Assembly (NCBI RefSeq): GCF_003018255.1
Contig: NZ_CP027440.1
Origin: Escherichia coli
GTDB lineage: Bacteria; Pseudomonadota; Gammaproteobacteria; Enterobacterales; Enterobacteriaceae
Direction: 5' to 3' (one strand)
DNA length: 64,000 bases
Shown here piece after piece: positions 18,057 through 32,988 of the stretch (its first letter is position 1; every line of letters starts with the position of its first letter). Below the pieces are notes generated by a model, which worked only from the letters and a program-made list of their open reading frames with translations, did no database searches and had not been told where the DNA came from. The translations under genes and the position numbers were made by a program.

Positions 18057-18992
18057 TTATTTCACTTCAACCACATTCAGCCGTAACTCATCCAACTGAT
18101 TTTCATCTTCTTCAGGCTGCCAACCCGCCGGTTGTAGAGGGATCTCTTCGCGATCAAACGCCAGATCACCCCCGTTAACCACTTCAGAACCGTGGGTAAT
18201 ACCTTTGAAATCGAACAGGTTGGTATCGCACAGATGCGACGGCACCACATTCTGCATCGCGCTGAACATCGTCTCGATACGCCCTGGATAACGTTTATCC
18301 CAGTCACGCAACATGTCAGCAATCACCTGACGTTGCAGGTTAGGCTGTGAACCGCACAGGTTGCACGGAATAATCGGGAACGCTTTTGCATCGGCAAAGC
18401 GCTGAATATCTTTCTCGCGGCAGTAGGCCAGCGGGCGAATCACGATATGTTTGCCATCATCGCTCATCAGTTTCGGAGGCATACCTTTCATCTTGCCGCC
18501 GTAGAACATATTTAAGAACAACGTTTGCAGGATATCGTCACGATGGTGACCCAGCGCGATCTTCGTCGCTCCCAGTTCCGTTGCGGTACGATAAAGGATA
18601 CCGCGACGAAGACGAGAACACAGTGAGCAAGTGGTTTTGCCCTCCGGAATCTTCTCTTTCACGATACCGTAAGTGTTCTCTTCCACAATCTTGTACTCAA
18701 CGCCCAGCTTTTCAAGATACTCGGGCAGAACGTGTTCCGGAAAGCCCGGTTGCTTTTGATCGAGGTTAACAGCCACCAGCGAAAAATTGATTGGCGCGCT
18801 TTGCTGCAAATTGCGCAGAATTTCCAGCATGGTATAGCTATCTTTACCCCCGGAGAGGCAAACCATGATGCGATCGCCTTCTTCAATCATATTGAAGTCA
18901 GCAATGGCTTCGCCCACGTTACGACGCAGGCGTTTTTGTAATTTGTTCAGGTTGTATATTTCTTTCTTCGTATTCTTTTGATTTTCTTGCAT
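18057..18992 (-). CDS. ttcA: tRNA 2-thiocytidine(32) synthetase TtcA
   Basis: 311 aa with SGGKDS PP-loop motif and CxxC pairs; its 5' end overlaps the prophage attL. Confidence 0.9.
18943..18957. other. attL core of the Rac-like prophage (TTGTTCAGGTTGTAT), inside the ttcA 5' coding region
   Basis: The same 15-mer recurs at 32764-32778 with diverged but related flanks. Confidence 0.55.
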
Positions 18993-19043
18993 TATTTCAG
19001 TTCTCTGGTACTAAATGGGGCAAATTGGGGGCAAACTTTGCAA

Positions 19044-20279
19044 CTACGATAACCGCGCATTCAACATGGCTACCTGTTCGTCGTTCATGTCATCAATCCA
19101 CATACCGTAAATTTCATACACCATCTGCGCAGTTTCATGCCCCATCTGGCTGGCTATAAACGCCGGGTTCGCTCCTGCCGTCAACAGCCAGCAGGCAAAA
19201 GTATGCCGCGTATGGTACGGATTACGGCGGCGAATACCAGCACGTTTTACTGCTGCATTCCATCTCGCACCCAAACTGCTTACCGAGTAATAAGGTTTCT
19301 GTTTTCCGTTACACACTCTGGGCATGAAAACAAAATGCAGTTTTTGCTTTTCGGTTCTGCCGTACTCCCGATGATAAAAAGTGATTTCGCTTTTGCGATG
19401 ATGCCCGGTCAGTTTGTATTGCTCCTTCAGTGCTTCAAGAGCAGGCTGCAGTAGTGTTACCGTCCGGATCCCCGCATTTGTTTTTGGGGGACCGAACATA
19501 TCAAGTATCGTCAGGTTTCTTCTGACATTCACAACTCCCTTCTCGAAATCCACATCCTCCCACGCCAGAGCAGCCAGTTCCCCGTGACGAAGCCCGGAGT
19601 ATACGGCAAATTTCCACAAGTTCTGGCTCTGTCCTTTTTCACTTTCCATTAATGCATTGAATTCTGTTTTAGATAACGGGTCAGGCTTTATTCTGTTTCT
19701 CTGTAATTTTTTTACTCCTTCAAATGGTTTGGTTGATATAAATCCCGACTGATACGCAAAACGTAACAACGAACAGAGCAGGGCGATATAATTATCAACT
19801 GTGCGCACGGTTCTTCCTTTTTTGTTGGATCTTGGATTATCTAGGTAAAGCGTTTCTCCATGCAGCAGTTCATTCCGGTAGTTTAAGATATCGCTATAAC
19901 GAATATGCGATATCGGGGTACTCTCACAAATTATTATCCTGAGTGTTTTTAATTGTGATTTCGTTTTCTTCATTGTGTTTGTTGTTAACTCTGTTTCTTT
20001 AATTTTTGTCCAGATATCACAAAGCTCCCCGAACGTTTTTATGACCCTCGTTGTCACCATTTTTGCCCCAGTGCTGGACTGGGGAAAACGTCTTAAATAC
20101 TCAAACTCACCGGAATTGATTTCATGAACTATCAACGCTCTTAAATTCCCGGCTTTTTTAATGTTACTGTTAGTAACCTCCCAGCCTTTCAATGTTTCCC
20201 GACATCGTTTTCCTCGAAACATGAACCAGATGCGAATGTATTTACCTCGAATCTCGACACCTGTTGGTAATTTAGACAT
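19044..20279 (-). CDS. intR: Rac prophage tyrosine integrase IntR
   Basis: 411 aa with a C-terminal tyrosine-recombinase catalytic region (HxxR ... Y); immediately inside attL. Confidence 0.9.
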   Translation of the reverse strand: MSKLPTGVEIRGKYIRIWFMFRGKRCRETLKGWEVTNSNIKKAGNLRALIVHEINSGEFEYLRRFPQSSTGAKMVTTRVIKTFGELCDIWTKIKETELTTNTMKKTKSQLKTLRIIICESTPISHIRYSDILNYRNELLHGETLYLDNPRSNKKGRTVRTVDNYIALLCSLLRFAYQSGFISTKPFEGVKKLQRNRIKPDPLSKTEFNALMESEKGQSQNLWKFAVYSGLRHGELAALAWEDVDFEKGVVNVRRNLTILDMFGPPKTNAGIRTVTLLQPALEALKEQYKLTGHHRKSEITFYHREYGRTEKQKLHFVFMPRVCNGKQKPYYSVSSLGARWNAAVKRAGIRRRNPYHTRHTFACWLLTAGANPAFIASQMGHETAQMVYEIYGMWIDDMNDEQVAMLNARLS

Positions 20280-20280
20280 A

Positions 20281-20496
20281 TCATGAGTCTTTGATAAACT
20301 GATTTATCTTTGGATAGTTGTACCAGATAATTCCTCGCTTACTGTCTGGCTTCCCTAAAGGAGATACTCGTTTGAAGTGGAAGCCTTCCACCCAACAGTT
20401 CTGGCGGTATGCTTCAATTTGTCTGGCCCCCAGACCAGTGCGAAGCATCAGGCCGTATTCAACCATCCACTCTTCATTAAAGATTACTTGTGCCAT
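20281..20496 (-). CDS. xisR: excisionase-like protein XisR (YdaQ)
   Basis: Start at [11 protein letters not shown] gives 71 aa; directly upstream of intR. Confidence 0.7.
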
Positions 20497-20595
20497 CGCA
20501 TTACCTCTGGCAGGCGCCAATGTTAGACTTAAATTGACGCCCGATGTTGATTATTAATAATCAGCTATGAAGTTTTAATTTGAATACAATGCAAT

Positions 20596-20796
20596 TCACG
20601 AGGACTGAAGTTTCTCGCAATTAAAATTTATCAGTTTTACTTTCTGCTCTCTGGAAACGCCTGCTTCTTTTTTACCTGAGAGCATTTTTTCGCATTCTGA
20701 TTTAGTTAGTTTATATTTTGAATATCTTGTCCAGTTAGTAGGAGTGCCACCTTCCTTTTCAATAGTGGCGGTAATTTTATACATGAACACCTCCAT
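20596..20796 (-). CDS. rcbA: Rac prophage protein RcbA (YdaC)-like
   Basis: ORF 20596..20856; contains MYKITATIEKEGGTPTNW...; exact start is ambiguous (Met at 20796 or 20784). Confidence 0.5.
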   Translation of the reverse strand: MEVFMYKITATIEKEGGTPTNWTRYSKYKLTKSECEKMLSGKKEAGVSREQKVKLINFNCEKLQSS

Positions 20797-20971
20797 TATT
20801 ATTTCCAGTGGTTCGTTTATTCCATCTTTCGAGTGCTTCTTTTTCACTTCCACCATAACCGGTTCGGGATTCGCATCCGTTACACTTCGCTCGGTAATAT
20901 CCTGAAATGGCTTTCACCGTTACTGATGGACAACCACAAAATGGACATGGTTTAACATTGTCATATCTCAT
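20777..20971 (-). CDS. ralR: restriction alleviation protein RalR (Lar), zinc-finger small protein
   Basis: Start at MRYDNVKPCPFCGCPSV gives 64 aa with two CxxC pairs. Confidence 0.75.
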   Translation of the reverse strand: MRYDNVKPCPFCGCPSVTVKAISGYYRAKCNGCESRTGYGGSEKEALERWNKRTTGNNNGGVHV

Positions 20972-21027
20972 AATTTTTCTCATAAAAAATATTTCAAGTT
21001 GGCGGTGCATTACACCGCCAGGCTGAA

Positions 21028-21843
<816 letters not shown>

Positions 21844-21909
21844 ATTTTATAACCCAGAACGGGCGTCAGAAATGACGCCTTTTTTATTGCAGAAAAGCGA
21901 GAGGTAATT

Positions 21910-22509
21910 ATGCGTAAACTTTATGCCGCCATTTTGTCCGCAGCCATTTGTCTGGCCGTATCCGGTGCGCCTGCATGGGCGTCTGAACATCAGTCCACGC
22001 TGAGCGCGGGGTATCTTCATGCCCGGACGAACGTTCCCGGCAGTGATGATCTGAACGGGATTAACGTGAAATACCGTTATGAGTTTACGGACACACTGGG
22101 GATGGTGACGTCATTCAGCTATGCAGGAGACAAGAATCGTCAGCTGACCCGTTACAGCGATACCCGCTGGCATGAAGATTCCGTTCGTAACCGCTGGTTC
22201 AGCGTAATGGCGGGGCCGTCTGTGCGCGTGAATGAATGGTTCAGCGCGTATGCGATGGCGGGTGTGGCTTACAGCCGTGTGTCGACTTTTTCCGGGGATT
22301 ATATCCGCGTAACTGACAATAAGGGGAAAACGCACGATGTGCTGACCGGAAGTGATGACGGTCGCCACAGCAACACGTCTCTGGCGTGGGGGGCTGGCGT
22401 GCAGTTTAACCCGACCGAATCCGTGGCCATTGATATTGCTTATGAAGGCTCCGGCAGTGGTGACTGGCGCACTGACGGTTTCATCGTGGGTGTCGGTTAT
22501 AAATTCTGA
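21910..22509 (+). CDS. lom: Lom/Ail/OmpX-family outer-membrane beta-barrel protein (prophage Lom)
   Basis: 199 aa with signal peptide, alternating beta-strand pattern and C-terminal GYKF. Confidence 0.85.
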   Translation: MRKLYAAILSAAICLAVSGAPAWASEHQSTLSAGYLHARTNVPGSDDLNGINVKYRYEFTDTLGMVTSFSYAGDKNRQLTRYSDTRWHEDSVRNRWFSVMAGPSVRVNEWFSAYAMAGVAYSRVSTFSGDYIRVTDNKGKTHDVLTGSDDGRHSNTSLAWGAGVQFNPTESVAIDIAYEGSGSGDWRTDGFIVGVGYKF

Positions 22510-22573
22510 TTAGCCAGGTAACACAGTGTTATGACAGCCCGCCGGTTCAGGCGGGCTTTTTTGTGGGGTGAAT

Positions 22574-25500
22574 ATGGCAGTAAAGATTTCAGGTGTACTG
22601 AAAGACGGTGCAGGTAAACCGGTACAGAACTGTACAATCCAGCTGAAAGCAAAACGTAACAGCACCACGGTGGTGGTGAACACGGTGGCCTCAGAAAATC
22701 CGGATGAAGCCGGGCGTTACAGCATGGACGTTGAGTACGGTCAGTACAGCGTTATTCTGTTGGTGGAAGGATTCCCGCCGTCACATGCCGGGACCATCAC
22801 CGTGTATGAAGATTCCCGACCCGGTACGCTGAATGATTTTCTCGGTGCCATGACGGAGGATGATGCCCGTCCGGAGGCTCTGCGCCGTTTTGAACTGATG
22901 GTGGAAGAGGTGGCGCGTAACGCGTCCGCGGTGGCACAGAACACGGCAGCCGCGAAGAAATCAGCCAGCGATGCCAGCACATCAGCCCGTGAGGCGGCAA
23001 CCCATGCGACTGATGCTGCAGATTCAGCACGTGCAGCCAGCACGTCAGCCGGACAGGCCGCTTCGTCGGCTCAGTCAGCGTCTTCCAGCGCAGGAACGGC
23101 ATCAACAAAGGCCACTGAAGCCTCAAAAAGTGCTGCCGCTGCAGAGTCCTCAAAAAGCGCGGCGGCTACCAGTGCCGGTGCGGCGAAAACGTCAGAAACG
23201 AATGCGGCAGCGTCACAACAATCAGCAGCCACTTCTGCATCCACCGCGACCACGAAAGCGTCAGAAGCTGCCACCTCAGCCCGGGATGCGTCGGCCTCAA
23301 AAGAGGCAGCGAAATCATCAGAAACGAACGCATCATCAAGTGCCAGTAGTGCAGCTTCCTCGGCAACGGCGGCAGGAAATTCCGCGAAGGCCGCAAAAAC
23401 GTCTGAGACGAATGCAGATAACAGCGCACAGGCGGCAGCAGACTCACAAACTGCATCAGCAAACTCCGCGACAGCAGCCAAAAAATCAGAAACCAACGCG
23501 AAAAATAGCGAGGCAGCAGCAAAGAGCAGCGAAACCAACGCTAAAGCCAGCGAAACTAATGCTAAATCCAGTGAAACAAACGCGGCGAAATCTGCGGCGG
23601 ACGCACTTAATTATCGCAACCAGGCGCAAGTAATTGTTGGCGATAATATCGGTCTTGGTGAAGTTGCCATGACCTGCACTGATATCTCTGTTGAGCCATC
23701 AGGTTATATTGGATTTGTCAGGATTTACATCTCAGCGAAAGGTTATCCATCAGTAGCGTCTAGTGCCGGTGATAATCTTATTTCTGGTTATATAGTTAGA
23801 TCAGAAGTGTCAACAAAAAGATATTCCGGTCTATTTGTTGGTTCAGATACAAAATCATTGTATTCGTACATTTACAGCCAAAGTTCTGGCCCGCAATGGA
23901 TACGTCATACCCGCAGAGATGAATTAAGCCGCTTTGGTCAAAATGAATCAACAACTCGTATGTATGGTCCAACTGGTGATCGTTTCTTTGAAATCCATAC
24001 TAACGGGAGTTGGGGAGTTTATGATTCTTCTTCTGGACAATGGTCTCCGTTAGGTTTAGCCCAGGGCGGTACTGGTGGAAGAACTATCGAGCAAGCACGT
24101 GCGAACTTGCGGGTAATGTATGAGCAAAAAGCTGGCCTTGCTAATACTGACCTAAACACCCTTACCGGTGAATATTCTGGTTTCTATCAACAACCAACGA
24201 GCGCTTACGCAACAGAAGAATTAAATTACCCAATCGGTCTGGCGGGCGCTTTAATAGTGCTCCAAACGAGAGCCAACACTGCTTCTTCCTGCGTTCAGGT
24301 GTACTACCCTTATAATAATCCGGGAATTACTTATAGACGAATATATGAAGGAGGAAGCGGTACCTGGTCTGAATGGAAGAGAGATGTATCAACAGAAAGG
24401 GTTGAAGAGGGAAAAGAAACAACTTACGTATATTCTACGTATTCTTCAGGCGCACCACGCTTACAGGTTTCCAAATCTGGTTTGTGGGGTTGTCATAATG
24501 GCACTGGCTGGTTGCCATTAGCTGTTGGGCAAGGAGGTACAGGTGCGACAACAGTAGAAGATGCGCGAAACAACTTAAGTCTTGGCGAAAGTAGCGCAGT
24601 TAAATTTAAAAACCTTACTTTAACCGAAGCGCTCGACACGACATTAGGACTGCTTACAAAAACAGGACGAGACTGGAACACGCAGCATACTGATAACATT
24701 AATAAATTTATACCAATTGCAGGCAGTACAAACGGCCCGGCAGGTTCTATGGTTCTTGGCGGCATTCATGTTCAATTTAGTAAAAATTATGCTGTGCAGT
24801 TCGGAGGCCGCAATTCCGGTTTTTGGGGAAGAACAATTGAAAATGGAACGACGCAGGAATGGAAGAAATTACTAACAGTAGACGATCTCAATTCATCTAC
24901 CGATCTTGCTGTCAGGTCATTAACCACATCTAACCCGGTAAAATCTGGCGGAGGGCGAATTGATGTCCTTGGAAGCACGTCAGACTATAGCAAAATGGAT
25001 TGCTTTGTACGTGGGTTTGATAGCACCGGTAATTCTCTCGCGTGGGCGTTGGGTTCATCAGTCGGCGTAAGTAAGATGCTGTCGCTAAAAAATTTCTTTA
25101 GCGGAGCTGAGATACTGTTAAATGGTAATGACGGCGCGGTTCAACTCAAAACAGGTGCTGTTAACGGGGCTAAAGCGCAGGCGCTCACTATCAACAAGGA
25201 TGAGGTTAACTCAACTGTTGATTTAACTCTTACAAAACAAACAGGGACTGGAAATCGTTTTGTTTTACAGAACTTAGGTAATACAGAACTATCATTTGCC
25301 GCAAAAGTATGGGGATCAAGTGATCGACAAAACGTTTTTGAGGTTGGAACGTCTGCTGCGTATCTGTTTTATGCGCAAAAAACGTCAGCAGGCCAGTTGT
25401 TTGATGTAAATGGCGCTATTAATTGCACAACGCTGAATCAGTCATCAGACCGCGACCTTAAAGACGATATTCTCGTTATCAGCGACGCGACGAAAGCAAT

Positions 25501-25879
25501 CCGTAAAATGAACGGATACACCTACACGCTCAGGGAAAACGGGATGCCTTATGCTGGCGTTATTGCACAGGAAGTAATGGAGGCGATACCAGAAGCTGTG
25601 GGATCGTTTACTCATTACGGTGAAGAGTTGCAGGGACCAACGGTTGACGGCAATGAATTACGTGAAGAAACACGTTATCTGAATGTTGACTACGCCGCCG
25701 TGACGGGGTTACTTGTTCAGGTCGCCCGTGAAACAGATGGTCGCGTTACCGCGCTGGAAGAGGAAAACATAACGCTACGTAAAAATCTGGCAACAGCAGG
25801 CACCCGGATCAGCACTCTGGAAAATCAGGTAAGCGAACTGGTTGCACTTGTCGGGCAGTTAACAGGAAGCGAACATTGA
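22574..25879 (+). CDS. stf: side tail fibre protein (lambda Stf-like N-terminus, Ala/Ser-rich repeat shaft, C-terminal endosialidase-type intramolecular chaperone / peptidase S74-like domain)
   Basis: Start MAVKISGVLKDGAGKPVQNC resembles the lambda Stf N-terminus; long AAxxSxTxA repeat region; C-terminal SDRDLKDD ... coiled-coil tail typical of self-cleaving fibre chaperone domains. Confidence 0.8.
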   Translation: MAVKISGVLKDGAGKPVQNCTIQLKAKRNSTTVVVNTVASENPDEAGRYSMDVEYGQYSVILLVEGFPPSHAGTITVYEDSRPGTLNDFLGAMTEDDARPEALRRFELMVEEVARNASAVAQNTAAAKKSASDASTSAREAATHATDAADSARAASTSAGQAASSAQSASSSAGTASTKATEASKSAAAAESSKSAAATSAGAAKTSETNAAASQQSAATSASTATTKASEAATSARDASASKEAAKSSETNASSSASSAASSATAAGNSAKAAKTSETNADNSAQAAADSQTASANSATAAKKSETNAKNSEAAAKSSETNAKASETNAKSSETNAAKSAADALNYRNQAQVIVGDNIGLGEVAMTCTDISVEPSGYIGFVRIYISAKGYPSVASSAGDNLISGYIVRSEVSTKRYSGLFVGSDTKSLYSYIYSQSSGPQWIRHTRRDELSRFGQNESTTRMYGPTGDRFFEIHTNGSWGVYDSSSGQWSPLGLAQGGTGGRTIEQARANLRVMYEQKAGLANTDLNTLTGEYSGFYQQPTSAYATEELNYPIGLAGALIVLQTRANTASSCVQVYYPYNNPGITYRRIYEGGSGTWSEWKRDVSTERVEEGKETTYVYSTYSSGAPRLQVSKSGLWGCHNGTGWLPLAVGQGGTGATTVEDARNNLSLGESSAVKFKNLTLTEALDTTLGLLTKTGRDWNTQHTDNINKFIPIAGSTNGPAGSMVLGGIHVQFSKNYAVQFGGRNSGFWGRTIENGTTQEWKKLLTVDDLNSSTDLAVRSLTTSNPVKSGGGRIDVLGSTSDYSKMDCFVRGFDSTGNSLAWALGSSVGVSKMLSLKNFFSGAEILLNGNDGAVQLKTGAVNGAKAQALTINKDEVNSTVDLTLTKQTGTGNRFVLQNLGNTELSFAAKVWGSSDRQNVFEVGTSAAYLFYAQKTSAGQLFDVNGAINCTTLNQSSDRDLKDDILVISDATKAIRKMNGYTYTLRENGMPYAGVIAQEVMEAIPEAVGSFTHYGEELQGPTVDGNELREETRYLNVDYAAVTGLLVQVARETDGRVTALEEENITLRKNLATAGTRISTLENQVSELVALVGQLTGSEH

Positions 25880-26086
25880 TATCCTTCAAGCCCTGAAGGA
25901 GGCTGTTCCTGGTACGTTCAGACTGTTGTTGAGCTGGAAATCGCAACGGAGGAAGAAACTTCGTTGCTGGAAGTCTGGAAAAAGTATCGGGTGTTGCTGA
26001 ACCGTGTTGATACATCAACTGCACCTGATGTTGATTGGCCAGCAGCACCGAAGTGTAATTCATTAGAACTCATCACCTGTGAATAA
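25880..26086 (+). pseudogene. orphan 3' remnant of a tail-fibre-assembly (tfa) gene
   Basis: In frame with stf immediately after its stop, no start codon; encodes ...[29 protein letters not shown]..., a Tfa-type C-terminal motif by recollection. Confidence 0.45.
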
Positions 26087-26687
26087 TATCTGTTTTTGAG
26101 TAAGTTAGTAATAATCACTTAAATGTGTTATGAGTTTGTTGAGGCGTGATTTGCAATAGGATAGAGAGTACGATTATGGATTGAGAATAAGAAAGCGCCA
26201 TGAAAGAGTTTCATGGCGAGTACATAAACGTACAAAATATGATGAAAGTAGAGTGGCATAAGCCACTATGTTAACTTATAGCAATAGGGAAGATAAGTAA
26301 ATAATATTTCTTGAGTATAGTGTAAGTCGTTCATTGTAAAGCGTTAATGTTATCTATATTGTTTATCTTAAAATAAGGTGTATAAACCAAACTTTTGAGC
26401 TAAAAGTTTAAAGAGTATTAGTGCAAAAATAATGTTTAATAAGATAATCAATTTGCTTTGTATCTTCATTTCGAAAGATTGCTAAGTAACGTTAATTACC
26501 AAAACGATAGATCAGAATTATCTTAGAGTCAATGACTTTAGGTTTGTTTATAATGTAAATATTTTCTATTTGTTATAAGTTTTCTTAATATAGTCACCCA
26601 TGCAACTTGTTCCGTGTGGAGATTAAAGGTTAAAATTTAATGCGAAGATGGAATTATATTATATTTGTTATAATTAATTTAACCTTA

Positions 26688-26770
26688 ACATCGTTGCTGG
26701 CGGCATGGAAGAAATATCGGGTCTTGCTGATGTCGTGTTGGCACTTCCTTAGTGCCGGATATCGAGTGGC
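26688..26770 (+). pseudogene. second, frameshifted tfa-like C-terminal remnant
   Basis: Encodes ...[10 protein letters not shown] then, after a +1 shift, RVGTSLVPDIEWPAAPIG; a degenerate direct repeat of 25955-26060. Confidence 0.3.
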
Positions 26771-26987
26771 CAGCTGCACCTATAGGGTAAAAATATAGTT
26801 CTATATGGGAGCGCTATTTTTACAATATAAATGCTGAACGGAAGAATCTAACCAGTTACAAAAAACATAGTTATGTAATCCAGTTGCCTGGGCATGCGTG
26901 TGATGTTGATAGCTATTACTGTATCTTCCGTTCACTTACCTTATTGTGAACAGTTATATATAATTTGATCTGCTCTTATTCAGCCTG

Positions 26988-28190
26988 CTAGGCTGCTGTA
27001 AATCTTCGATACTTTCTTAACATAAAGATCATGATTAGAATAATTGAAAGTAAGTAAACAATCCAAATGGTGATATTTCGTTCAATTAAAAAGCTACCAA
27101 TTCCGCCGATCACTGAAGGAATCACCAGAGAAGCGGCCCCCATTAACGCAGATGTGGCACCCAGACTGGTACGTTGGCTGGACATAGTTAGGTAAGTATA
27201 AAGTGATTCGAACATACCTCCGGCAAACATCAAAACAATGAAGAATAATATAAAAACATTGACATGATGAACGAATATTATTAGCGGAGTGCACAATACG
27301 ATAAATGAAGCAATGAGCTTCAGCCATAAACTCAAAATTTGTGGTGCAGACCGCTTCTTAAGTAGTTTACCTGATAGTGCTGCTCCCAGCAGAAGGAATC
27401 CTCCAATAATTGATGAGATAACACCAAATTGCGTAGATGAGTATCCATACTTAACCATCAAAATAAATGGGGAAGCTGTGACATAACAATAAATTAGAGA
27501 GAATGAAAGTCCAAGAGAAAGGCAAGGTAGATAAAATCTTGGTTGCTTACTTATCTCTTTGTACGTAAGAAATGATGATTTTAGTGAATATGTAATCCGT
27601 TTTTTATGACTGAGTGTTTCAGGGAAGTTAAAATAGACATACGTTAATGTTACAACAGAATATCCTAATATCATTAGAAAAATTGCACGCCATCCCCATA
27701 CATCATTAATTATTCCTCCCAGCAGTGGAGAAGCAATAGGCACGACACCTTCAATAGTTATGATAATAGCGTACAGTGTAGCAGCCACTGAACCGCGTGT
27801 TACATCACGAACGGCACTAATTGCTGTAACCAGAGTTATTGATATAGAAAGCCCCTGTATGATGCGTATTGTAAGAAACGTACCCAATCCGGTCGAGAGT
27901 GTGAGGCAATATGTTGTCACACAATAAATAATAGCACCTGAAAGCATAATTCTTCGACGACCAATAGAATCAGATAATGGGCCAAAAATTAGCTGTCCAA
28001 AACCTATACAAAGGGTATAAACCATGATAGACAATTGCATGGACGGGATGTTTTGTCTAAATTCTTTTGCGATGTCAGGAATTGAAGGCAAATAAGTGTC
28101 CACACCTAGAATGCCCATAATAGTCAGCAGCGATAGGCCAATAGTAAAGAAAAGTATATTCTTTCTGTGAATAACAACTTGTGATTTCAT
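26988..28190 (-). CDS. MFS transporter (12-TMS, Bcr/CflA-like drug:H+ antiporter family), AT-rich foreign gene
   Basis: 400 aa, highly hydrophobic, with the MFS signature GPLSDSIGRRR after TM2; GC content visibly far below the flanking DNA. Confidence 0.8.
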   Translation of the reverse strand: MKSQVVIHRKNILFFTIGLSLLTIMGILGVDTYLPSIPDIAKEFRQNIPSMQLSIMVYTLCIGFGQLIFGPLSDSIGRRRIMLSGAIIYCVTTYCLTLSTGLGTFLTIRIIQGLSISITLVTAISAVRDVTRGSVAATLYAIIITIEGVVPIASPLLGGIINDVWGWRAIFLMILGYSVVTLTYVYFNFPETLSHKKRITYSLKSSFLTYKEISKQPRFYLPCLSLGLSFSLIYCYVTASPFILMVKYGYSSTQFGVISSIIGGFLLLGAALSGKLLKKRSAPQILSLWLKLIASFIVLCTPLIIFVHHVNVFILFFIVLMFAGGMFESLYTYLTMSSQRTSLGATSALMGAASLVIPSVIGGIGSFLIERNITIWIVYLLSIILIMIFMLRKYRRFTAA

Positions 28191-28952
28191 TATTTATCAC
28201 CATGAATAAATTAAAAGAATGAAAAAAACTCCATTTAAATGGAAGGAGGTGGATAATTATCGTGTAGGCAATACAACAGAGTTGAAAAGAACTGTCAAAC
28301 TTTTAACTCAAAAAAGTGAGATGTGAATCACAGACATAAAAATCATCTTTTTCAGCCCTATGGTTCAGTTAAATTTGATTGTTATCGTACGAAGGTTTGA
28401 ACGTGTGTGTGCGTATGCGGTATTTTTTCTTGCGAGTGCCGGAGTTATGAGAGCGTTGTATTAACCTTCATAATCTGACCTATTCAATTGATTCCAGTAC
28501 ACCAATGGGTATTTTGGTGTTATGGTATGTGACTCCAAATAAAATGGAGCGTGAACTGATAGTTGTGCGAACAAAAGTCGGACTAGAAACCGCTCGGGTA
28601 CAGTGGCGAATTGGAGTTGGCGACCCAAACTGACCTAGGAACAATCGTTGCAGATCGGACGATTAATTTCATCAGAAATTCCTCGCTAAAAGGTGGCTAT
28701 CACTGTGATGTTAACGTATCTAATTTGTACAAGAAATTTCTGCGGGGGAAAATGAAACCGCAGACTCGTTGTATGCAAAAACGTGCTGCGGCTAACTGGT
28801 GAACTTTCGATAGTGCGGGTATTGAATGATTTCTAGGCGTTATCGATTTTACGTATTTTTTGCATGATAGAATTCGTACCTCCTCCCAACGACCTTCCAT
28901 GGCTTTCCGGACTTCTGTAGGCCGGCGGACGATGCTGTCCTCGGATGTTGTG

Positions 28953-29810
28953 CTAATTGGGTGATAACAGATCCTGTGTATGGGAGTTTCCCTTTGTGCG
29001 TGCGTTGATGCTGGTAACGGTAAACGTCATGATGAACACGACCGCGAATAAGACGACAATCGTCGGAGCTGGTGCGCTGTCGATAAAAAAGGACAACCAG
29101 ACACCAGTCATTGACACTATTACCGATATGCCAGTCGCCAGTAGGAGCGCAATATGAAAGCGTTGTGTCAGGAGTACCGCAATGGCGCCAGGCGCTATGA
29201 GCAGAGAAATGGAGAGAATGATACCTACCGCTTTCAGCGTCGCCACAATGGTCAGAGAGACCATGCACAGCAGCCCATAATGCAGCCATCTCGTATGCAA
29301 ACCGCTTACCTGCGCCTGTTGATAATCAAAGCTGAACAGCAAAAAATCCCGCCATTTTACGCTAATAACAAGTGTAACCAGCCCGGCAATAATCATCGTC
29401 TGGATTATATCGCCGATGGTTATCCCGAGCATGTCGCCGAAAAGAATATGGTCAAGATGTACGTCTGGTTTGACTGCAATATACAAGATCAGACCTGCGG
29501 CAAACATGCCAGAAAAAACAATCCCCATCACTGTATCTTGCTTGATTCGGCTGTTGTCTTTCAGGTATCCCGTCGCCACCGCGCAGAATACTCCGGCGAC
29601 GAATGCCCCTGTAGCTAAAGGTAACCCCAGAATCCAGGCAAGCACGATGCCAGGAAAAACTGCATGACTCATCGCGTCACCCATCAGTGCCCAACCTTTC
29701 AGGACCAGAAAGACCGACAGCAGCGCACAGGGTATGGAAACTACCAGTGAAATCAGCAGTGCGTGACTCATAAAGGTGAACTGCAGTGGCTCCAGTAATA
29801 ATGCCATCAT
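28953..29810 (-). CDS. sitD: Mn/Fe ABC transporter permease SitD
   Basis: 285 aa integral membrane permease; last gene of the four-gene operon; overlaps sitC by 4 bp. Confidence 0.9.
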   Translation of the reverse strand: MMALLLEPLQFTFMSHALLISLVVSIPCALLSVFLVLKGWALMGDAMSHAVFPGIVLAWILGLPLATGAFVAGVFCAVATGYLKDNSRIKQDTVMGIVFSGMFAAGLILYIAVKPDVHLDHILFGDMLGITIGDIIQTMIIAGLVTLVISVKWRDFLLFSFDYQQAQVSGLHTRWLHYGLLCMVSLTIVATLKAVGIILSISLLIAPGAIAVLLTQRFHIALLLATGISVIVSMTGVWLSFFIDSAPAPTIVVLFAVVFIMTFTVTSINARTKGNSHTQDLLSPN

Positions 29811-30664
29811 GAGCGATCCTCCAGCGCCTTATGCGCACGCCGACGATTTGCCAAAAGCCCATGGGTGGGCGCAAAGACAAATGCTAAAAGAAACAGCAGT
29901 GTCTGCGCCACCACGATGATTCCACCTGTCGCGCCGTCCAGAAAGTAACTGACCCACGAGCCGAGGAAACTGGTTACACTGCCAATAGTTACAGCAATCA
30001 TGAGCAGGCGGGGAAAACGATCGGTTAACAACCATGCTGTTGCACCGGGAGTCACCACCAGACAGATCACCAGAAAGGCACCAACCGTTTGCAGCGCCGC
30101 AACGGTCGAAACCGACAGCAGGGTGAAGAAGAGGAGTTTTAATCTGCCCGGATGCAATCCAATAGCACGGGCGTGATTCTCGTCGAAAAAGGTCACCATA
30201 AGATCTTTCCATTTGAAAAAAAGCACGATGATCGAGAGAATGCCAATGATAGTGAGTTGCAGGATATCCGCCGGATCGATTGCCAGAATATTGCCCAGGA
30301 CGATGGTCTGAATGTTCACAGATGTCGGGTTCAATGACACCATAAACAGCCCCAGGCCAAAAAAGGATGAGAAGATCAGGCCGATGATGGCATCTTCTTT
30401 TAAGCGGGTGCGTTGGTTAAGAAACAGCATGCTGCCCGCAGCCAGTCCGCCGGAAAAGAAGGCTCCCAGAGAAAACGGAAGCCCCAGCATATATGCTCCC
30501 GCAACACCCGGGACAATAGAGTGCGACAACGCATCGCCAATCAGCGACCAGCCTTTTAGCATCAGATAGCATGACAGGAAAGCGCAGAGACCGCCGACCA
30601 TCGCCGAGACCCACATCGCATTGAGCATATATTCATAGCTGAAGGGTTCCAGTAGCACGTTCAT
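29807..30664 (-). CDS. sitC: Mn/Fe ABC transporter permease SitC
   Basis: 285 aa permease paralogous to SitD; 4-bp overlaps on both sides. Confidence 0.9.
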
Positions 30665-31488
30665 CTTTCTTCCCTCTGCACCGCTGACGGTCGATGAGCC
30701 ACAAAAGGGCGTTCATCGTCAGTAATAATGCTTTCTTCCGAGCCGTTAAGTGTGACATGGCGCAGTACGCCGCTAAAAGCCAGCTCCAGGTTCTCGGCTG
30801 TAAAAGTGGTGTCTGTCGGCCCGCTTGCCAGGACGGTGCCTTTGACCATGACCGTATAATCGCAAAATGTCGTGACGGATCCGAGATTGTGTGTTGAGAC
30901 AAGCATCGTTTTGCCTTCCGCGCGTAACTCCCTCAACAGGCTGATGATTTTGGCTTCGGTTTTCACATCAACGCCAGTAAAAGGTTCATCCAGCAGGATC
31001 ACATCACCCTGCTGTGCAATCGCTCTCGCCAGAAAGACGCGTTTCTTTTGTCCACCGGAAAGCTCGCCGATTTGTCGATGGCGAAAATTCACCATATCGA
31101 CACGTTCCAGCGCATCGGTGACAATTTGACGATCCCTCTTTTTGGCGATACGCAACATACCCATATGCCCATAGCGGCCCATCATCACCACATCTTCCAC
31201 CAGTACAGGAAATGACCAGTCAACCTCTTCTGACTGAGGGACGTAGGCAACCAGGTTTTTCTGTAACGCCTGTCGCGTGGGAATACCCAGAACAGATATC
31301 TTTCCGCTGGTCAGACGCACAAATCCCATAATCGCTTTAAACAACGTCGATTTTCCGGAACCGTTTACCCCAACCAGAGCGGCAATAGATCCACTTGGTA
31401 CTGTGAAGGATGCATCGCGCAGTGCTGTGTGCCCGTTACGCCAGGTGACAGTAACATCATTAACGACAATGCCTGCAGATTGCATCAT
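30661..31488 (-). CDS. sitB: Mn/Fe ABC transporter ATP-binding protein SitB
   Basis: 275 aa with Walker [13 protein letters not shown] signature LSGGQKKR and Walker B ILLDEP. Confidence 0.9.
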
Positions 31489-32402
31489 TATTTCTCCCTT
31501 TTCCCGGCTTTAATTCCCTGTACCAGCGTACTGGTAGTAACCTTAAGAAGGTCGATATACGTCGGTACCGGGCCGTTTTCTGTGCTCAGGGAATCGACAT
31601 AGAGCACACCGCCGTAGTGTGCGCCGGTTTCACGCGCAACCTGACGCGCTGGTTTATCGGAAATCGTACTCTCGCTAAAGACTGCCGGGATATGATTTTT
31701 CTTAACTATATCAACAACCTTACGTACCTGTTGCGGTGTTCCTTGTTGATCGGCATTAATCGGCCACAGATAAAGCTCTTTTAGCCCCAAATCGCGTGCG
31801 AGATAAGAAAAAGCCCCTTCACTGGTGACCATCCACCGCTGATTCTCAGGGAGTTCCGTAATCTGCTTACGCAGGGGGGCAAGGGTTTGGGTAATCTTGG
31901 CTTTATAAGTATCGGCATTACGTTGGTAGGTTTGTGCATTAGCGGGATCGTATTTTATCAACGCATCACGAATATTATCGACGTAAATCAGAGCATTATC
32001 TGGCGACATCCATGCATGGGGGTTAGGTTTGCCCTCATAGGGGCCTTCGGTGATCCCTACTGGCGTCACACCCGAAGAGACAATTACTTCTGGAACCCCA
32101 TTGAGATGCTGGTAAAAGCGTTGGAACCACAATTCCAGATTCATACCATTGGCGAGGATCAGTTGTGCCCCCTGCGCACGTTTAATATCGCCAGGGGTAG
32201 GCTGATACTCATGAATTTCTGCACCGGGCTTGGTTATGGATGAGACTTCTGCAGCATCTCCAGCCACGTTTTTGGCCATATCCGCGATGATGGTAAATGT
32301 TGTAATGACCTTGAATTTTTCAGTTGCACTTGCCTGAAATGCGATCGAGCAGGTGAGGGCGAGGCACCCCAAGAGCATGGTTACTTTTTTTATTGAGTGC
32401 AT
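31488..32402 (-). CDS. sitA: periplasmic Mn/Fe-binding protein SitA (cluster A-I substrate-binding protein)
   Basis: 304 aa with signal peptide; first gene of the operon; 1-bp overlap with sitB. Confidence 0.9.
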
Positions 32403-32434
32403 AATTTAGTACCTATAGTGAGCAAAATTAGAAC

Positions 32435-32456
32435 AAACATAGCAACGGCTATGTTT
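32435..32456. promoter_or_regulatory. MntR box (perfect palindrome AAACATAGC-N4-GCTATGTTT) in the sitA promoter
   Basis: Perfect 9-bp inverted repeat 33 bp upstream of the sitA start; matches the MntR operator consensus as I recall it. Confidence 0.65.
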
Positions 32457-32477
32457 TATAGCACAACCTATACAAAA

Positions 32478-32496
32478 TGAAAATGATTATCATTAA
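32478..32496. promoter_or_regulatory. Fur box in the sitA promoter
   Basis: TGAAAATGATTATCATTAAC matches the GATAATGATAATCATTATC Fur consensus at most positions. Confidence 0.6.
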
Positions 32497-32610
32497 CAAC
32501 TTTGTGGCCCAAAACAGGGATTAGGTTGTTTCCTGCTGGCGACATGGTATTGAGGAAAAAAGCAGGGCAGCTATTAGGCTTTGAAATGACTTTATGAGGA
32601 AAATTTTTGA

Positions 32611-32655
32611 TGGCAAAAATGGGGCAAAACGCTGTAGAAGGGGCAAAAAAGGGGC
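32611..32655. repeat. three direct GGGGCAAAA(A) repeats in the prophage arm next to attR
   Basis: GGGGCAAAAC ... GGGGCAAAAAA GGGGCAAAAAAA; two similar copies lie at 19019-19038 next to attL. Confidence 0.6.
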
Positions 32656-32763
32656 AAAAAAAGAGTGGATTATCGTAGCTTATTGTTGTCGCTGATAATG
32701 TTTAACATATTGAAAAATAAATAAAATACTTATGAGTCAGATAGTTGTGATTTTTGCCCTTAC

Positions 32764-32813
32764 TTGTTCAGGTTGTATTGTTCTTTCTTACTAATTTCTT
32801 GATTTTGCGACAT
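32764..32813 (-). pseudogene. ttcC: ttcC: duplicated ttcA 5' fragment at attR (core TTGTTCAGGTTGTAT at 32764-32778)
   Basis: Reverse strand encodes MSQNQEISKKEQYNLNK-stop, paralogous to the TtcA N-terminus [17 protein letters not shown]. Confidence 0.6.
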
Positions 32814-32988
32814 TTAAAAGCGACTCAATTCGTTATATGGCATCAGAAGAGTATGCGTCATGCCGGAACGCCCAGCATAAGAAATCTGATATAAAAACTG
32901 TGGCGTGTATGGTACGGATTAGAGGGGAAAATGTCAGCACATTTGCGAAATGAATCAAAAAGCCCGCAGCAATGTGCGGGCGTTAGTG

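Follow-up and report, generated by a model that had tools for sequence, protein, structure and literature searches.

Candidate integrase arm-type sites in the ttcA leader of a Rac-like Escherichia coli element, and a putative ttcA promoter within its integrase gene

In the attP of bacteriophage lambda, the arm-type sites P1, P2 and P'1–P'3 are bound by the N-terminal domain of lambda Int, and at lambda-type sites Xis acts on the distal arm only. At icd, e14 and phage 21 carry in attP a near-copy of the segment that they displace, which keeps the host gene intact and leaves an orphan fragment at the other junction. The Rac prophage of Escherichia coli K-12 enters ttcA, and its integration alters the N-terminus of TtcA (Liu et al. 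2015, PMC4632033; likewise PMC11014345), so that N-terminal replacement of TtcA is already known for K-12. Arm sites and a ttcA promoter go unmentioned in Liu et al. 2015 (PMC4632033), and Rac integration and excision have so far been described only for the core, XisR and IntR.

The locus considered here lies in a stretch of 64,000 nucleotides of E. coli DNA (contig NZ_CP027440.1), hereafter the window. Like lambda, it has an integrase with a separate arm-binding domain and a partner excisionase gene beside int, short repeats unrelated to the core in both arms within ~150 bp of it, and a tandem set beside int, about one helical turn apart. Between this set and the core, where lambda has an IHF site, it has a candidate IHF-like one. 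It differs from lambda in the motif, GGGGCAAA, and in the Pfam family of the arm domain, PF12167; there are two int-proximal copies here and three in lambda, all copies here share one orientation, the core here lies inside a protein-coding gene, and the arm sites here are candidates by sequence. With K-12 Rac (PMC4632033) it shares the integration site, an identical gap and motif pair and the same three distal copies; the intR DNA is ~97% identical across the junction, and the TtcA N-terminus is likewise changed on integration. It is distinct from K-12 Rac in its size (13.8 kb against 23 kb), in the loss of most Rac genes and the truncation of recT, in carrying a sitABCD-type transporter, in a shared core of 15 bp, and in a TtcA that departs from the ancestral form at 6 residues, against 4 there. 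The arrangement at icd is similar in its near-copy and its orphan fragment, whereas at ttcA it is the 5' end that is replaced, and the promoter appears to be embedded in the integrase coding sequence. Since the 5' end is replaced, the phage must also bring promoter, leader and start codon.

We propose that the GGGGCAAA pair between ttcA and intR quite probably represents the P' arm-type sites of IntR, sited in the leader of ttcA, whose promoter would be embedded in int. Arm sites as such are well known, and this assignment would add one more case; greater interest attaches to what came to light beside it, the putative integrase-derived promoter and its relic.

Host and element DNA at the ttcA locus

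The features that define the insertion in the window are as follows.

18057–18992, minus strand: ttcA, 311 aa (NCBIfam TtcA equivalog, E 2e-154); codons 1–12 (18957–18992) supplied by the element
18993–19043, no strand: ttcA–intR gap, element DNA and part of the ttcA leader, without a promoter-like or terminator-like site
19044–20279, minus strand: intR, tyrosine integrase with an N-terminal arm-binding domain, 411 aa (Pfam Phage_integrase, E 2e-23)
20281–20520, minus strand: xisR-like excisionase ORF (Pfam DUF1233, putative excisionase, E 9e-21); K-12 annotation gives a shorter gene
18943–18957, no strand: att core at attL, TTGTTCAGGTTGTAT, within ttcA codons 12–17, identical to 32764–32778
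32764–32778, no strand: att core at attR; empty-site genomes align to the window only from 32764 on
32779–32813, minus strand: orphaned ancestral ttcA 5' end (ttcC'-type remnant), ATG at 32811–32813, identical to the empty-site ttcA 5' end

A direct-repeat search matches 18943–18985 with 32764–32806, the identical 15-bp core lying within the match, and the MG1655 annotation sets the left end of Rac at the base equivalent to 18943. With attL lying within the ttcA 5' end, and intR and xisR next to it, the site is of the Rac type. The ttcA–intR junction is present in 2907 of 5426 complete E. coli genomes, and elsewhere the match stops within the ttcA 5' end; Rac-type elements thus occupy ttcA in over half of the complete genomes of the species. 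Strain 118UI represents the empty site, with uspF directly after ttcA; from the core on, its DNA at the ttcA 5' end and further upstream is identical to the attR flank of the window, and it bears no relation to the 51-bp gap. These empty-site matches imply that 18958–32763 is element DNA throughout. The element DNA therefore takes in ttcA codons 1–11 and two bases of codon 12, the gap, and the 13.8 kb upstream. Six positions separate the 17-residue TtcA N-terminus that the element encodes from the ancestral version orphaned at attR, MSQNQEISKKEQYNLNK. The claim of an earlier note on this DNA, that the upstream DNA and N-terminal codons of ttcA come from the prophage, is in this way confirmed by the empty-site genomes: the upstream sequence of Rac-free strains is different, save for a 51-nt block that is 76% identical to the promoter segment of int.

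The element as a whole is a decayed, Rac-like remnant of 13.8 kb and is not K-12 Rac; the Rac gene set (recET, racR, kilR and others) is not preserved in it. The phage genes left are a RecT C-terminal fragment, a J fragment, lom and a tail fibre gene. At 21028–21843, the RecT C-terminal fragment (minus strand) directly adjoins part of the C-terminal domain of tail tip protein J (plus strand), a junction that marks a large internal deletion of the prophage. The tail fibre gene, of 1103 aa, contains diverged repeats at 23180–23499, mainly with an 84-nt period (spacings 126, 84 and 84 nt). Cargo genes at 26988–32402 encode an MFS transporter and a sitABCD-like metal ABC transporter of four genes, namely a ZnuA-like binding protein, an ATPase and two ABC-3 permeases; a distance of 218 bp separates the end of the transporter genes from the distal copies of the motif.

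The repeated motif and its proposed assignment to IntR

The gap spans 51 bp (18993–19043), from the ttcA start codon (18990–18992, minus strand) to the intR stop codon (19044–19046, minus strand), and carries TGGGGCAAATTGGGGGCAAAC at 19016–19036. Two exact copies of GGGGCAAA lie within it on the plus strand, at 19017–19024 and 19028–19035, 11 bp apart from start to start. The repeat had earlier been placed at 19019–19038 in a 50-bp gap; it is indeed present, with coordinates 2–3 nt away from those given and in a gap that is really 51 bp long. The candidate sites in the two arms, and the element between the core and the pair, are listed below.

19028–19035, plus strand: int-proximal P' arm-type site candidate, exact GGGGCAAA (TTTGCCCC in the int/ttcA sense); TTGCCCC invariant in 10 aligned elements
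19017–19024, plus strand: second P' arm-type site candidate, exact motif; T(T/A)TGCC(C/T)C at equal spacing in other genera
32610–32658, plus strand: distal (P) arm cluster, GGGGCAAA at 32621, 32640 and 32651, with a degenerate ATGGCAAA at 32610
18971–18983, plus strand: IHF-like site, TATTCTTTTGATT, one mismatch to TAAnnnnTTGATW, between the core and the P' pair

The window holds six copies of GGGGCAAA against 2.8 expected, and at least six occur in 10 of 100 shuffles, so that the window-wide count by itself is not significant. That count is the one point in favor of the pair being a chance product of A/G-rich DNA, and it is set against the placement of the copies, which is remarkable. Five of the six, all on the plus strand, fall within 160 bp of the att cores 18943–18957 and 32764–32778, on the element side, and the Poisson probability of at least five copies in these core-flanking 320 bp is ~4e-12. 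In addition, their position is kept across genera and in a phage attP. A chance origin of the pair is thus of negligible probability, and the conservation data effectively refute it. The sixth copy lies inside intR at 20062–20069, on the minus strand and in the opposite orientation, ~1.1 kb from the core, and fits the chance expectation of 2.8 per window.

The motif differs from the core sequence TTGTTCAGGTTGTAT and occurs in both arms: at attL two copies lie 60–80 bp from the core, and at attR there are three to four, 105–160 bp from the core. Residues 5–69 of IntR, ahead of the catalytic domain, match the Pfam family PF12167, Arm-DNA-bind_2 (E 2.2e-26); arm sites are therefore to be expected. 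Relatives of the element were sought by a species-level genome scan with a profile of IntR and the Int of phage PHB10. Integrases 68–71% identical to IntR stand beside ttcA in Pluralibacter, Citrobacter, Erwinia and three Enterobacter species, and each intact relative has two sites 11 bp apart that lie 6–9 bp past the int stop. Read in the sense of int, these sites are TTTGCCCC or GTTGCCCC, followed by TATGCCCC, and the remaining gap sequence differs. When the gaps are aligned, the only invariant blocks are TTGCCCC, TGCC, AATG, and an AG where the ribosome-binding region probably lies. The conservation set comprises ten elements from six genera and one phage attP, in which the diverged elements represent only about three or four lineages. 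A scan of viral contigs with IntR gave 80 loci, all 99–100% identical and ending at the int stop, and was uninformative on conservation.

Phage PHB10, the Int of which is 69% identical to IntR, preserves an intact attP. Its distal part has three copies of AGGGGCAAA and a degenerate fourth copy, after which ~120 bp lead to the core TTCAGGTTGTAT; beyond the core come 12 ttcA codons with their start, carried by the phage, then two copies in AGGGGCATAATAGGGGCAAA, and the int stop codon. The three distal copies of the window recur in the attR of K-12, in register with the PHB10 attP, and both the window (ATGGCAAA) and K-12 (GTGGCAAA) have a degenerate copy where PHB10 has a perfect one, an alignment that suggests a two-plus-two arrangement. 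Between the distal cluster and the core, in 32660–32760, the blocks GTAGCTT, TAAC..ATTG, TGA..TCA and GAGTTG are common to the window, K-12 and PHB10, and are candidate sites for accessory proteins. vB_EcoS-683R6 was rejected as a source of attP, being a prophage prediction with host flanks.

The earlier proposal that GGGGCAAA marks candidate Int arm sites is upheld by the arm domain, by the clustering at the cores, by the retention of the pair across elements ~70% identical, and by the PHB10 attP. Binding of IntR to GGGGCAAA may be inferred from the same observations. A literature search, itself incomplete, returned no report of IntR binding to the motif and no description of the motif as an arm site.

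In all elements examined the pair falls within the transcribed leader, 25–45 nt ahead of the ATG, and its conservation might on that account reflect a part in ttcA expression, independent of recombination, with the pair acting either in the leader RNA or as the operator of a host regulator. Such a role is very unlikely to explain it, since the motif is repeated three to four times in the distal arm, outside the ttcA transcript in a lysogen, and the ttcA leaders of empty sites are without it. Decay of the pair tells the same way: in a Salmonella remnant without int and xis, in which ttcA is intact, the gap keeps a single mutated copy, GTTCGCCCC, and the promoter block survives. This decay in the absence of int fits sites that matter only while an integrase is present.

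The motif might also be the binding site of the excisionase XisR rather than of the integrase. Excisionase sites, too, are typically tandem direct repeats about one helical turn apart, and XisR shifts a 294-bp attR fragment that holds three distal copies (Liu et al. 2015, PMC4632033). In the same work, XisR shifted probe AttR and left probe AttM unshifted (PMC4632033). When the primers of that study are mapped on the attR locus of K-12 J53 (171–585), both probe lengths are reproduced, and the unshifted 291-bp AttM control proves to contain all three copies and to end one base before the core. The motif is, furthermore, present in the int-proximal arm as well. Assignment of GGGGCAAA to XisR is highly improbable on these grounds, and the assignment to IntR is retained. 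On the J53 map, the shifted probe alone carries the core and host flank (462–585), whereas the probe that covers the whole distal arm is unshifted; by these mapped probes K-12 XisR differs from lambda Xis, which binds the distal arm.

In K-12, the one sequence for which such binding is published, GeF-seq detected IHF at a TAAnnnnTTGATW site beside the ttcA ATG (Kasho et al. 2021, PMC8407004). If the assignment to IntR is right, the N-terminal domain of IntR would hold the tandem P' sites and, at attR, the three to four distal copies, its catalytic domains would work on the 15-bp core within ttcA, and bending of the intervening DNA by IHF would join core and arm, as in lambda. The proposed map of arm pair, IHF site, core and distal cluster offers targets for controlling the integration and excision of Rac.

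The ttcA promoter and the integrase coding sequence

Two further features bear on the transcription of ttcA.

19204–19240, minus strand: putative ttcA promoter in intR, −35 CTGGTA at 19240–19235, −10 TACCAT at 19217–19212, start A at 19204; transferred from MG1655
19103–19106, minus strand: equivalent of two weak alternative K-12 ttcA starts (−111 and −114; Kim 2012), without a canonical −10

A scan of 18900–19500 with the strict sigma-70 consensus returned no promoter-like and no terminator-like site; the int-internal element escaped it because the −35 matches the consensus at only 3 of 6 positions. A permissive scan of ten orthologous sequences gives one common element, with a −10 that ends ~220 nt upstream of the ATG. 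It consists of CTGG(T/C/A)A, 17 nt and TACCAT, and is found at −219 or −220 in all nine other elements scanned. The element lies within the integrase coding sequence, where TACCAT forms the Tyr-His codons of the NPYHTRH box. The integrase protein sequence also constrains TACCAT and part of the −35, so that their conservation alone is no proof of promoter function. A promoter in the gap was considered and rejected: the sole −10-like hexamers there end 5–7 nt before the ATG, occur in some lineages and are unconserved.

From the permissive scan, the K-12 start was predicted near 1,412,161 before the comparison with SMRT-Cappable-seq. Among the entries listed in Supplementary Data 2 of Yan et al. 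2018, the b1344 operon starts at 1,412,160 on the reverse strand, and b1344 has a single transcriptional context in both media (PMC6131387). On NC_000913.3, the position listed there, 1,412,160, is an A seven nt after TACCAT and 212 nt upstream of the ATG at 1,411,948, and falls inside both intR (1,412,000–1,413,235) and the annotated Rac. The window is identical to MG1655 across the promoter stretch, which puts its equivalent start at 19204. Kim et al. 2012 (PMC3415461) report weak starts at −111 and −114, also within intR, from 8 and 15 reads. The two K-12 datasets thus disagree, the one giving −212 from cap-selected full-length reads and the other −111 and −114 from few reads; in both, transcription begins in prophage DNA, upstream of the gap. 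The mapped 5' end lies at a proper distance from the −10/−35 pair, the −35 is weak (3/6), and the second dataset has its other, weak starts; that the −35/−10 element drives the −212 start may be inferred from this spacing.

The suggestion that the prophage provides the ttcA promoter is accordingly supported, with one refinement. The published K-12 starts (−212, and −111/−114) are all in intR, and none in the published K-12 start maps is within the ttcA coding region; the refinement is that the gap itself, which has no promoter-like site, does not hold the promoter. Since the start is 212 nt upstream, the pair lies at +170 to +188 of the leader, outside the promoter.

In place of the int-internal element, the main source of the ttcA transcript might be a promoter in the gap, or read-through of the recET-ralR-rcbA-xisR-intR operon into ttcA. 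No terminator-like site intervenes between intR and ttcA, so that read-through could physically occur, for example upon induction. Either is very unlikely as the main source: among the entries listed, cap-selected full-length reads give one ttcA context, from −212, and no b1345 operon (PMC6131387). A gap promoter is opposed as well by the want of a promoter-like site there, and the −10 candidates in the gap leave no space for a ribosome-binding site.

With the int-internal element as the source, a phage entering the ttcA 5' end would bring attP-borne codons 1–12, the ribosome-binding region, the leader and the promoter, and integration at this end calls for an attP that carries the replacement for the lost promoter, leader and start. 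A promoter hidden in the integrase gene is a way for a phage to enter the 5' end of a gene without silencing it. The proposal bears on the reading of ttcA expression, of Δrac phenotypes and of intR deletions; with the ttcA promoter in intR, such deletions would remove it. The ttcA start sites were public before, and this interpretation is apparently new, as far as the literature was searched.

An integrase-gene relic at prophage-free sites

The host DNA beyond attR contains one more feature of interest.

32894–32944, minus strand: integrase-gene relic in host DNA, with CTGACA at 32937–32932, 17 nt, and TACCAT at 32914–32909; predicted start at 32901

This relic block of 51 nt is 76% identical in DNA to intR 19197–19247, and is present in the attR host flank and at every empty site examined. 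It translates to KCADIFPSNPYHTRHSF, which matches IntR residues 345–373, the region of the NPYHTRH box, at 52% by tblastn. Its promoter-like hit, CTGACA-17-TACCAT, is 96 nt upstream of the ancestral ATG, and has a better −35 than the phage copy. At the empty site of Klebsiella pneumoniae, the block and its identical hexamers are kept, and the rest of the uspF–ttcA spacer has diverged. A decayed Rac-like remnant lies ~330 nt upstream of ttcA in Salmonella enterica IndS104; the remainder of its int is the last 68 codons, now with a Trp-to-stop change, and begins ~10 nt upstream of the −35. In Proteus and Aeromonas the block is absent and the TtcA N-termini are different. The SMRT-Cappable-seq tables, which cover gene-covering transcripts only, list no start near the K-12 attR relic.

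We give an even chance to what is also the simplest reading, that prophage-free E. coli and Klebsiella have as their ttcA promoter a domesticated piece of an integrase gene. An ancient Rac-like phage would have put its own DNA in place of the 5' end and promoter of ttcA, and would have decayed since. The int segment that encodes NPYHTRH would then have persisted because this segment is the promoter (CTGACA-17-TACCAT). If this holds true, the "ancestral" TtcA' would itself be phage-derived, and each new Rac-type phage would swap in its own copy of the promoter. A weaker addition to this reading is that IntR, on the P' pair in the leader DNA, would modulate ttcA transcription. More generally, the relic at prophage-free sites suggests that a host promoter can be the fossil of such an integration.

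A first alignment had paired the candidate arm sites with ATGGTACGGATTAGAGGGG of the empty site; the pairing was spurious and was rejected because that stretch is homologous to intR 19197–19247. The relic sits between the uspF terminator and the ancestral ttcA start.
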